A program made the translations under genes and the position numbers. From Octopus vulgaris (Eukaryota), in assembly GCA_951406725.2 (NCBI GenBank), contig OX597826.1:22630001-22694000 (forward strand): a stretch of 64,000 nt of DNA, read 5' to 3'. Every line of letters starts with the position of its first letter. Positions within the stretch are counted from its first letter, which is position 1. Shown here piece by piece: positions 51,181-55,654 of the stretch. The notes beneath the pieces were generated by a model. The model made no database searches, was not told where the DNA came from, and worked only from the letters and a program-made list of their open reading frames with translations.

Positions 51181-51186
<6 letters not shown>

Positions 51187-54100
51187 AATATAAGAGAGTG
51201 GTCACTATATTGCTCACTCTAGCACCAGTTAATCCAAAAGGTTTCAACCACGAAAATACATGTTTCCCATGAAAGTCAGTACGACTGTTAGCTCACACGG
51301 ACAGGGCAAATAAAAAATAACAAAAATACAGATTATTTTGGGACAATTGTTTCGCTATTAATGAATTAAATGTAATATTACTTACAAAAAATCCATTTGT
51401 AGCTCGTCAGCCAAGACTATCTGGATGAAATCCACTCAATCACACGCCAGATTTTACCATAACGATAAATACGCGTGTGGTTCAATTGATTAAATCCGAC
51501 GTTATAATTCAAATGCCCCAACCAACAGCGCGCCAAACTTTCACGGAAAACAAATACAGCATTTAGAAATAAATGCAGCATAATTATAATTAATTAATAA
51601 GGGTGAGAGAATTAGATACTAATTTAATAGTATATTTATTCAACACCAAGTGGCCTAGTGCTACGAGAAACCTGGATTATTATAATATTTTATAACATAT
51701 TATAATATTTTTACAAAATAAATATAAGAGAGTGGTCACTATATCGCTCACTCTAGCACCAGTTAATCCAAAAGGTTTCAACCACGAAAATACATGTTTC
51801 CCATGAAAGTCAGTACGACTGTTAGCTCACACGGACAGGGCAAATAAAAAATAACAAAAATACAGATTATTTTGGGACAATTGTTTCGCTATTAATGAAT
51901 TAAATGTAATATTACTGACAAAAAATCCATTTGTAGCTCGTCAGCCAAGACTATCTGGATGAAATCCACTCAATCACACGCCAGATTTTACCATAACGAT
52001 AAATACGCGTGTGGTTCAATTGATTACATCCGACGTTATAATTCAAATGCCCCAACCAACAGCGCGCCAAACTTTCACGGAAAACAAATACAGCATTTAG
52101 AAATAAATGCAGCATAATTATAATTAATTAATAAGGGTGAGAGAATTAGATACTAATTTAATAGTATATTTATTCAACACCAAGTGGCCTAGTGCTACGA
52201 GAAACCTGGATTATTATAATATTTTATAACATATTATAATATTTTTACAAAATAAATATAAGAGAGTGGTCACTATATTGCTCACTCTAGCACCAGTTAA
52301 TCCAAAAGGTTTCAACCACGAAAATACATGTTTCCCATGAAAGTCAGTACGACTGTTAGCTCACACGGACAGGGCAAATAAAAAATAACAAAAATACAGA
52401 TTATTTTGGGACAATTGTTTCGCTATTAATGAATTAAATGTAATATTACATACAAAAAATCCATTTGTAGCTCGTCAGCCAAGACTATCTGGATGAAATC
52501 CACTCAATCACACGCCAGATTTTACCATTTGAATTATAACGTCGGATGTAATCAATTGAACCACACGCGTATTTATCGTTATGGTAAAATCTGGCGTGTG
52601 ATTGAGTGGATTTCATCCAGATAGTCTTGGCTGACGAGCTACAAATGGATTTTTTGTAAGTAATATTACATTTAATTCATTAATAGCGAAACAATTGTCC
52701 CAAAATAATCTGTATTTTTGTTATTTTTTATTTGCCCTGTCCGTGTGAGCTAACAGTCGTACTGACTTTCATGGGAAACATGTATTTTCGTGGTTGAAAC
52801 CTTTTGGATTAACTGGTGCTAGAGTGAGCAATATAGTGACCACTCTCTTATATTTATTTTGTAAAAATATTATAATATGTTATAAAATATTATAATAATC
52901 CAGGTTTCTCGTAGCACTAGGCCACTTGGTGTTGAATAAATATACTATTAAATTAGTATCTAATTCTCTCACCCTTATTAATTAATTATAATTATGCTGC
53001 ATTTATTTCTAAATGCTGTATTTGTTTTCCGTGAAAGTTTGGCGCGCTGTTGGTTGGGGCATTTGAATTATAACGTCGGATGTAATCAATTGAACCACAC
53101 GCGTATTTATCGTTATGGTAAAATCTGGCGTGTGATTGAGTGGATTTCATCCAGATAGTCTTGGCTGACGAGCTACAAATGGATTTTTTGTAAGTAATAT
53201 TACATTTAATTCATTAATAGCGAAACAATTGTCCCAAAATAATCTGTATTTTTGTTATTTTTTATTTGCCCTGTCCGTGTGAGCTAACAGTCGTACTGAC
53301 TTTCATGGGAAACATGTATTTTCGTGGTTGAAACCTTTTGGATTAACTGGTGCTAGAGTGAGCAATATAGTGACCACTCTCTTATATTTATTTTGTAAAA
53401 ATATTATAATATGTTATAAAATATTATAATAATCCAGGTTTCTCGTAGCACTAGGCCACTTGGTGTTGAATAAATATACTATTAAATTAGTATCTAATTC
53501 TCTCACCCTTATTAATTAATTATAATTATGCTGCATTTATTTCTAAATGCTGTATTTGTTTTCCGTGAAAGTTTGGCGCGCTGTTGGTTGGGGCATTTGA
53601 ATTATAACGTCGGATGTAATCAATTGAACCACACGCGTATTTATCGTTATGGTAAAATCTGGCGTGTGATTGAGTGGATTTCATCCAGATAGTCTTGGCT
53701 GACGAGCTACAAATGGATTTTTTGTAAGTAATATTACATTTAATTCATTAATAGCGAAACAATTGTCCCAAAATAATCTGTATTTTTGTTATTTTTTATT
53801 TGCCCTGTCCGTGTGAGCTAACAGTCGTACTGACTTTCATGGGAAACATGTATTTTCGTGGTTGAAACCTTTTGGATTAACTGGTGCTAGAGTGAGCAAT
53901 ATAGTGACCACTCTCTTATATTTATTTTGTAAAAATATTATAATATGTTATAAAATATTATAATAATCCAGGTTTCTCGTAGCACTAGGCCACTTGGTGT
54001 TGAATAAATATACTATTAAATTAGTATCTAATTCTCTCACCCTTATTAATTAATTATAATTATGCTGCATTTATTTCTAAATGCTGTATTTGTTTTCCGT

Positions 54101-55647
54101 GAAAGTTTGGCGCGCTGTTGGTTGGGGCATTTGAATTATAACGTCGGATGTAATCAATTGAACCACACGCGTATTTATCGTTATGGTAAAATCTGGCGTG
54201 TGATTGAGTGGATTTCATCCAGGTAGTCTTGGCTGACGAGCTACAAATGGATTTTTTGTAAGTAATATTACATTTAATTCATTAATAGCGAAACAATTGT
54301 CCCAAAATAATCTGTATTTTTGTTATTTTTTATTTGCCCTGTCCGTGTGAGCTAACAGTCGTACTGACTTTCATGGGAAACATGTATTTTCGTGGTTGAA
54401 ACCTTTTGGATTAACTGGTGCTAGAGTGAGCAATATAGTGACCACTCTCTTATATTTATTTTGTAAAAATATTATAATATGTTATAAAATATTATAATAA
54501 TCCAGGTTTCTCGTAGCACTAGGCCACTTGGTGTTGAATAAATATACTATTAAATTAGTATCTAATTCTCTCACCCTTATTAATTAATTATAATTATGCT
54601 GCATTTATTTCTAAATGCTGTATTTGTTTTCCGTGAAAGTTTGGCGCGCTGTTGGTTGGGGCATTTGAATTATAACGTCGGATGTAATCAATTGAACCAC
54701 ACGCGTATTTATCGTTATGGTAAAATCTGGCGTGTGATTGAGTGGATTTCATCCAGATAGTCTTGGCTGACGAGCTACAAATGGATTTTTTGTAAGTAAT
54801 ATTACATTTAATTCATTAATAGCGAAACAATTGTCCCAAAATAATCTGTATTTTTGTTATTTTTTATTTGCCCTGTCCGTGTGAGCTAACAGTCGTACTG
54901 ACTTTCATGGGAAACATGTATTTTCGTGGTTGAAACCTTTTGGATTAACTGGTGCTAGAGTGAGCAATATAGTGACCACTCTCTTATATTTATTTTGTAA
55001 AAATATTATAATATGTTATAAAATATTATAATAATCCAGGTTTCTCGTAGCACTAGGCCACTTGGTGTTGAATAAATATACTATTAAATTAGTATCTAAT
55101 TCTCTCACCCTTATTAATTAATTATAATTATGCTGCATTTATTTCTAAATGCTGTATTTGTTTTCCGTGAAAGTTTGGCGCGCTGTTGGTTGGGGCATTT
55201 GAATTATAACGTCGGATGTAATCAATTGAACCACACGCGTATTTATCGTTATGGTAAAATCTGGCGTGTGATTGAGTGGATTTCATCCAGATAGTCTTGG
55301 CTGACGAGCTACAAATGGATTTTTTGTAAGTAATATTACATTTAATTCATTAATAGCGAAACAATTGTCCCAAAATAATCTGTATTTTTGTTATTTTTTA
55401 TTTGCCCTGTCCGTGTGAGCTAACAGTCGTACTGACTTTCATGGGAAACATGTATTTTCGTGGTTGAAACCTTTTGGATTAACTGGTGCTAGAGTGAGCA
55501 ATATAGTGACCACTCTCTTATATTTATTTTGTAAAAATATTATAATATGTTATAAAATATTATAATAATCCAGGTTTCTCGTAGCACTAGGCCACTTGGT
55601 GTTGAATAAATATACTATTAAATTAGTATCTAATTCTCTCACCCTTA

Positions 55648-55654
<7 letters not shown>
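51181..55654. repeat. 534-bp tandem array with internal inversion (2.5 units in one orientation, ~5.9 in the other); one HHR per unit
   Basis: Exact 534 period; inversion junction at 52526-52528 (cat microhomology); spacer 52529-52580; (TA)n on both sides. Confidence 0.97.
52618..52712 (+). ncRNA. Type I hammerhead ribozyme; further + copies start at 53152, 53686, 54220, 54754, 55288; - copies at 51329-51423, 51863-51957, 52397-52491
   Basis: cagatagtcttgg-CTGACGA-gcta...tagc-GAAA-caattg-TC-ccaaaataatctg; canonical GUC site. Confidence 0.9.

Follow-up and report, generated by a model that had tools for sequence, protein, structure and literature searches.

The 64,000-nucleotide stretch of Octopus vulgaris DNA analysed here (contig OX597826.1, positions 22,630,001 to 22,694,000; hereafter the window) contains, at positions 51181–55654, a tandem array of 534-bp units bearing hammerhead ribozyme motifs. 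The locus is one insertion of a young dispersed family and not a local satellite. We are highly confident that the family is an animal retrozyme without long terminal repeats (LTRs) which inserts in the manner of Penelope-like elements (PLEs). As for its origin, a PLE enzyme probably reverse-transcribed a single 534-nt RNA circle, itself a product of the ribozyme, starting at both ends of a DNA break; to this reading we assign a probability of about 0.6.

Nine type I hammerhead motifs, six on the plus and three on the minus strand, are spaced at exactly 534 bp, in agreement with the original prediction, which had been made from the letters of this stretch. On the plus strand the CUGACGA cores start (C3) at 52631, 53165, 53699, 54233, 54767 and 55301. 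The first of these motifs occupies 52618–52712, with its palindromic stem III at 52691–52698 and a predicted cut after C52699, the coordinate given originally; the other five follow in 534-bp steps across 53152–55382. On the minus strand the cores start at 52478, 51944 and 51410, in motifs spanning 52397–52491, 51863–51957 and 51329–51423, with predicted cuts after 52410, 51876 and 51342, respectively. The canonical CUGACGA/GAAA core and palindromic stem III were confirmed in all nine copies, each of which has a 4-bp stem II (GCUA/UAGC) closing a 42-nt insert, GAAA, the palindrome ACAAUUGU and C17. Stem I, predicted to be long, does comprise 11 pairs in total, but only four of them are contiguous and the rest form an interrupted extension.

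The copies on the two strands, reported earlier without note of an inversion, belong to two arms joined head to head with a 3-nt overlap common to both (52526–52528). When the unit is numbered from 52700, the base after the predicted cut, the minus arm (51181–52528; 2.52 units) has its 5' end at position 416 and its 3' end at 161, the short end, while the plus arm (52526–55654; 5.86 units) begins at 361 and ends at 285, in a long-end class located at about 291. The 3' end of each arm runs into (TA)n, at 51135–51180 for the minus and 55655–55772 for the plus arm, as had been predicted. An extension of approximately 125–130 nt (55531–55654), present at the long end only, appears to be the counterpart of the PLE "tail" between two putative reverse transcription (RT) starts, a concept taken from the accessible text of a study of an anole PLE (PMC11167929). 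Compared with the reference unit, the plus arm has one substitution and the minus arm four, and neither arm holds a variant common to several units. The array is flanked by fragments of long interspersed nuclear elements (LINEs) at 50863–51136 (+) and 56431–56704 (−), inverted and 97.4% identical, the left of which breaks off mid-frame at the TA tract.

The retrozyme class is already published, and since every sequence feature of animal non-LTR retrozymes is present, we place the element among them. These were defined by Cervera and de la Pena (2020; PMC7229834) and, as described in the accessible part of the literature, resemble the 534-bp element: their units are arranged in tandem, are low in GC, code for no protein and contain a single type I hammerhead, and they are dispersed. 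The class has no LTRs, primer-binding sites or polypurine tracts. The class requires at least two consecutive complete units with type I hammerheads, and here there are six and three in a row. The GC content of the repeat is approximately 0.32–0.33, and it shows no LTR arrangement (primer-binding sites and polypurine tracts were not searched for). Its unit falls within the 51–972 bp range given in the accessible text of Li, Clavereau and Pollet (2026; bioRxiv 10.64898/2026.07.22.740005) and is longer than the 170–400-nt RNAs described in that of PMC7229834. The predicted absence of an open reading frame (ORF) was upheld, the longest stop-free frame of the unit being 72 codons; an RT plus GIY-YIG ORF is absent from the array, which is not an autonomous PLE. 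Simple patterns revealed neither RNA polymerase III A/B boxes nor an octamer in the unit, the sense strand of which has three T5-6 runs. Two candidate features were discarded: an endless ORF on a circle (534 = 178 × 3), as there are 7–18 stops per unit in every frame, and a poly(A) signal at the AATAAA of unit position 236, since it is not conserved across subfamilies. No hammerhead match was obtained here from Rfam, either at the gathering threshold or at E ≤ 10, probably due to the long stem II insert. Because Rfam does not detect the motif, its status as a hammerhead rests on the descriptor match and on the covariation described below.

An exact 22-nt ribozyme-core pattern had 798 genomic matches, and a gapped pattern common to sibling families 3051, with none for either reversed control. 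Exact matches to junctions of a unit end with TA numbered 763 for one end and 290 for the other (controls 0). Searching the genome with the unit returned 1005 candidates, of which the 40 scored hold 276 matches, many chromosome-scale contigs being represented; 20 of the 21 public runs listed contain at least half of the unit's words, under four organism labels and from eight studies. The sample analysed was 70 loci of many hundreds, namely the window, 39 best matches (set A, biased toward near-identical copies) and 30 loci from position-ordered lists on contig C1 (set B, in which L198–L201 were chosen as long arrays). Divergent siblings and other elements (L100, L102–L116, L182–L194 and L196) stand outside these counts and were used for covariation and the helper search only.

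The arrays of set A are young, at 97–100% identity. At two loci, L065 and L132, a host repeat is split by the insertion, and among the matches listed the empty paralogues already hold a short TA-rich tract. A satellite, as the array had been termed, would form long local arrays without defined ends; we found, at many loci, arms that do not exceed 12.8 units and whose 3' ends are fixed. These are single insertions of a dispersed mobile family, and the term should be dropped. Dispersed arrays with variable start phase had also been anticipated. They are indeed dispersed, but phase varies at the 5' ends only, the 3' ends being fixed. A different arrangement was seen at 15967–17850, where a sibling repeat, approximately 92–95% identical to L109 and L116, has a small inverted insertion present as three copies of 594 bp. 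This looks like a local triplication and not rolling RT, since each copy has its own TA tract and the 3' half of the hammerhead only. Within one arm of L038 lies a 386-bp insertion (L038:5047–5432) with CTAG at its end, by which motif it may be Helitron-like.

The ends of the insertions are highly patterned. Two fixed 3' ends, at unit positions of about 161 and 291, lie approximately 130 nt apart, and 38 of the 43 inverted insertions pair an end of the one class with an end of the other; none has two like ends, and in the other five one end was left unclassified by the script. The 27 single-arm loci end at 291 (18 loci) or at 161 (9 loci). The 5' ends are scattered, with 2 of 113 within 10 nt of the cut. 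At the junctions between arms in set A (n=33, counted by hand) we found an overlap of 1–4 nt in 18, none in 6 and filler in 9. Apart from the target itself, the insertion ends carried neither poly(A) nor a repeat tail. The family thus displays what is expected of a PLE dependant: an inverted 5'-truncated arm, a tail at one end and an AT-rich or (TA)n target.

Assembly is difficult where repeats are nearly perfect or palindromic, and the window holds another palindrome at 57971–62360 (4.4 kb, 94.8%, microsatellite-rich), itself either an inverted duplication or an assembly artefact. The inversion or the array might accordingly be an artefact of a fold-back read, or else a one-off local duplication. 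Against this stand the 38 loci with arms of different length ending at different fixed positions, the passage of the unit into (TA)n at position 291 in short-read contigs of runs X1, X2, X4 and X16, which are independent of the assembly, and the presence of the unit under four organism labels. At the family level the artefact explanation is largely refuted, and we give it next to no weight.

As a control, three coding PLE families sampled from this genome (PLE-A, PLE-C and PLE-D) were examined. PLE-A has intact 717-aa frames in copies that are 99% identical, one of them in the window (41371–42771), and PLE-C has frames of about 900 aa. Each family has two preferred 3' ends into (TA)n, approximately 70 (PLE-A), 150 (PLE-C) and 100–120 nt (PLE-D) apart. 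Where hammerhead anchors occur on both strands, one short and one long end were found at 15 of 16 loci (9/10, 4/4 and 2/2 two-strand loci for PLE-A, PLE-C and PLE-D, respectively). The hammerheads of PLE-C and PLE-D have 8-nt palindromic stems III as well. PLE-A and PLE-C carry RW[K/F] and DKT motifs, which the accessible text of Craig et al. (2021; PMC8557442) gives for the Hydra clade, and by these motifs both families appear Hydra-like.

Biochemical work points in the same direction. According to the accessible text of Frangieh et al. (2024; PMC11167929), the anole PLE protein (Poseidon PAc) cleaves the two strands of AT-rich DNA and extends them both, and the two internal sites where it begins RT delimit the tail seen in the genome. 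Because coding PLEs show the same ends and because of this biochemistry, we consider that the retrozyme carries the full PLE signature. Endonuclease-bearing PLEs, as far as the accessible texts on the Hydra clade (PMC8557442) and PAc (PMC11167929) describe them, share with it the inverted 5'-truncated arm, the tail at one end, (TA)n or AT-rich targets, a type I hammerhead near the 3' end and two internal RT starts. The 534-bp element differs from PLEs in having no ORF and in arms many full units long. Its tail is about 130 nt versus 30–40 in the published PLEs, as available to us in part, and 70–150 nt in the local ones. Retrozyme identity, dispersed arrays and PLE-type mobilisation, all raised in the original prediction, are supported beyond what it could show.

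Tandem arrays with one fixed end are typical of Helitron-like rolling-circle elements, and LINE copies flank this locus, so that a DNA rolling-circle element or a LINE could be held responsible for moving the repeat. We regard this as highly improbable: two fixed ends in head-to-head pairs match the PLEs of this genome, no poly(A) or repeat tail besides the target is present, and selection acts on the RNA fold and the ribozyme.

What was the template? The longest arm has 12.8 units, and 87 of 115 arm segments exceed one unit. The cut site is crossed by 100 of the 115 segments, with none of 2383 adjoining alignment columns gapped, and therefore the template was a circle or an uncut multimer. 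A linear monomer was rejected, given that arms pass the cut seamlessly and only 2 of 113 5' ends lie near it.

Insertions are also uniform internally. The arms of one insertion agree at 223 of 226 diagnostic sites, where about 53% would be expected if they were independent, and mixed locus-sites amount to 7 of 299. Fifteen alleles are restricted to one of the 70 loci and fixed in every covered unit there; seven of them span both arms (L038, L042, L044 and L139). Fixed single-locus alleles would need frequent passage through one monomer, which fits what rolling RT on a circle would give. Rolling RT of a circle, as originally proposed, is thus compatible with the data, while the circle itself is something we infer. 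Thirteen of the fifteen locus-fixed alleles are changes from A/T to G/C. Editing of the sense RNA that became fixed in genomic copies was rejected as their source, with 4 A>G and 8 T>C among them (p=0.82).

The RNA appears to be under selection for its fold. The monomer from cut to cut (52700–53233) is predicted to fold strongly, with a minimum free energy of −155.4 kcal/mol (z −8.2; 0 of 100 shuffles as low). Folded as circles, the sense strands were better than the antisense strands in 7/7 units (about −140 to −152 versus −106 to −115 kcal/mol), with sense z values of −5 to −9 (12 shuffles each). Predicted pairs are broken by 13 of 34 inherited alleles and by 42 of 57 single-unit changes (Fisher p=0.0017), in a test that takes its structure from one unit and in which inherited alleles are unpolarised and not independent. 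Over 32 stem signatures, stem I is paired in 145 of 160 cells against a shuffled mean of 110 (0/5000), although the shuffle ignores relatedness and at least six of the 32 signatures belong to a PLE family and not to the repeat. Both sides of stem I change among siblings (UUGG/CCAA, CUCUA/UAGAG, UCUG/CAGA, UCAUA/UAUGA and GCCG/CGGC); stem II is less regular, 13 of 32 signatures having a non-standard first pair. Within the core, alternative alleles occur at more than one locus for N7 only, and the one other core change is U4C, found in all five hammerhead copies of both L139 arms. Core conservation in the siblings is no test, since the patterns used to collect them fixed the core. Stem III has two pairs in the monomer and eight in the dimer, and a double hammerhead equals twice the monomer ground state in energy, lying 3.8 kcal/mol above the best dimer fold. 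From these pair numbers and the constrained-fold energies, dimer cleavage would by calculation be the likelier mode.

On the preferred reading, an insertion might arise as follows. Tandem copies would be transcribed, and the hammerheads would cut the transcript, probably as dimers via the palindromic stem III, whereupon a host ligase would close the monomer. A PLE RT/GIY-YIG protein, possibly a dimer, would then cut both strands in (TA)n and prime internally, one DNA end being used at position 291 or so and the other near 161. Each RT would roll round the template for 0.1–13 units, and the two cDNA 5' ends would finally be joined by 0–4-nt microhomology or short filler. A circle is, in our judgement, the probable template.

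Several observations weigh against this. In the accessible text of PMC11167929, inactivating the hammerhead leaves insertion of the anole PLE as efficient as before, and only one of nine Xenopus retrozyme dimers was cleaved in vitro according to the accessible part of bioRxiv 10.64898/2026.07.22.740005. The predicted ground state of our monomer pairs the core GAC with the GUC site, and the monomeric active fold lies 5.6 kcal/mol above it in constrained folding. The "private" alleles may occur in unsampled parents, the sample being 70 loci of many hundreds, and since most loci are unsampled, uncut transcripts of homogeneous parents are still compatible with them. The 5' phases are mildly non-uniform (Rayleigh p=0.03). 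Seven long arrays (L033, L036, L041, L042, L054, L062 and L063) have a variant in some units only, often non-adjacent ones, and some array length may stem from later DNA duplication, conversion or assembly. The plus arm of L053 switches between two subfamily haplotypes, which speaks against a pure RT origin and implies two templates or conversion. The limits of the pair-breaking and stem I tests belong here as well.

Some of these points are shared with a rival account, in which a PLE mobilises the repeat but copies an uncut multimeric read-through transcript, the hammerhead serving another step (RNA 5' end formation or stability) and length being regained by occasional DNA duplication. It would equally lead us to expect seamless cut sites and concordant arms, and the predicted blocking of the core in the ground state and the partial variants in seven arrays are in its favour. 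We nonetheless find it unlikely, for if 5' truncation were the only process, arrays would become shorter with every generation, whereas arms of up to 12.8 units are present; alleles fixed in all units of both arms require frequent one-monomer passage; and the fold predicted for the complete circular monomer is strong in the sense strand. A second account, DNA expansion and conversion of retrozyme arrays, was proposed in the accessible text of Li et al. (2026; bioRxiv 10.64898/2026.07.22.740005). Short PLE-type insertions would here have been expanded later by unequal exchange and homogenised by gene conversion. Repeated partial variants agree with it, as in units 2 and 5 of L054, where two changes are linked, and in units 4 and 6 of L042, and conversion bias could give the 13 of 15 A/T to G/C alleles. 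Unequal exchange, however, needs more than one unit to start; the arrays are young, yet 87 of 115 arm segments exceed one unit; the window's own arms have no variant common to units; and inherited alleles respect the sense-strand RNA fold. We therefore hold expansion in DNA to be very unlikely as the source of the arrays.

The helper search likewise tells against the copied-circle reading, in that the PLE that had been expected to share the unit was not found. When the unit was compared by blastn with the window and with 30 PLE-A and 12 PLE-C loci, the matches were confined to AT-rich noise or isolated fragments of siblings, PLE-D matches the unit only in the 3' half of the ribozyme and in the next 30 nt or so, and none of the three families compared shares the unit or its two end blocks. 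There is a hint at a possible helper in a chimera, present at L102:2350–3760 (−) and L140 (contig C1, ~7.518 and 205.857 Mb), duplicated loci that represent a single event. In it, 1.1 kb of PLE-C RT sequence meets the 3'-terminal 300 nt of a sibling repeat (75% identical) at a microhomology of 4 nt, the whole lying inside (TA)n. This hints at template switching and, as a single event, is not proof.

Other PLE-related sequences were noted in the window. An inverted insertion of the very young PLE-A family, with two 3' ends about 70 nt apart, occupies 40287–43222. A head-to-head palindrome at 7107–7513, with two type I hammerheads and stem III ACAUAUGU, resembles PLE-C termini, and its TA runs start 63 and 199 nt past the two cut sites. 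A PLE remnant with a weak GIY-YIG match (3284–5420) has a hammerhead at 5307, the stem III (ACAAUUGU) and downstream 30 nt of which resemble the retrozyme family. PLE copies at 20177–22505, with RVT_1 and GIY-YIG present, and at 47959–50430 (−) show about 50–60% protein identity and are broken by stops or frameshifts. At 11895–15896 lies an element resembling an LTR retrotransposon; its reading frames are interrupted, and its direct repeats of 278 bp are 99.3% identical.

Public runs were examined as contigs; none of those listed as containing the unit is recorded as RNA, and their RNA status is a guess. Contigs of putative RNA runs cover the unit (window 52700–53767) and show no joints or ends, an observation that does not bear on circles. 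Among the differences listed, clustered A>G or T>C changes make up 17/18 in X1, 10/13 in X2, 11/13 in X6 and 7/9 in X17, four of the five small runs, the pattern not holding for the fifth (X4); the large DNA-like runs gave 3/13 (X15), 2/11 (X16) and 2/8 (X20). With run types guessed, the clustered changes look like A-to-I editing of double-stranded RNA on both strands, and two-armed insertions would yield such RNA. Perhaps, and we offer this tentatively, each insertion preserves as a clone one circular RNA molecule, captured by a PLE dimer that rolled round it up to about 13 times, the circle lineage being selected as RNA without a sequence-matched parent PLE, and the host editing the long double-stranded RNA to which two-armed copies give rise.

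Newt satellite 2 and schistosome SM-alpha are also tandem type I hammerhead repeats, and in the former a weak stem III favours cleavage as a dimer. Both are satellite blocks, whereas the 534-bp element forms short dispersed insertions with defined ends. The newt repeats are mentioned in the accessible text of Cervera and de la Pena (PMC7229834), in which circles and cleavage are reported for coral, mussel and axolotl retrozymes and rolling RT by PLEs is proposed; such demonstrations set these apart from the octopus element. Xenopus retrozymes are linked to PLE pseudo-LTRs (pLTRs) in the accessible part of Li et al. (2026), with local amplification suggested; 24 of 57 Xenopus families have a matching PLE pLTR there, and none was found for our element. 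Chlamys elements such as MRC1, in the accessible text of PMC8557442, are similarly non-autonomous PLE dependants with multicopy head-to-tail insertions; they differ in being reported without canonical hammerheads and in a 3' end that resembles their autonomous partners. The accessible texts of PMC7229834 and Li et al. (2026) do not describe arms joined head to head whose two fixed 3' ends lie in (TA)n, and the words "inverted" and "cephalopod" do not occur in the former. In the literature searched we found neither this family nor inverted retrozyme insertions with two ends described (subscription journals, Repbase and supplements lay outside the search).

The locus is ordinary in class and informative in mechanism. 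Neither the movement of animal retrozymes nor the inverted and tailed form of PLE insertions has yet been explained, and the published case for PLE help consists of co-occurrence and pLTR similarity. In this family, insertions numbering in the hundreds combine the full PLE signature with multi-unit arms and a single haplotype each, in a genome that also holds intact 717-aa PLE ORFs as candidate enzymes. For the question of circular versus linear templates it supplies a defined RNA, two predicted start sites and a defined target. If true, the clonal-circle reading would document directly in a genome that animal retrozymes retrotranspose by a rolling-circle route, and it would explain the inversion-plus-tail signature of PLEs.

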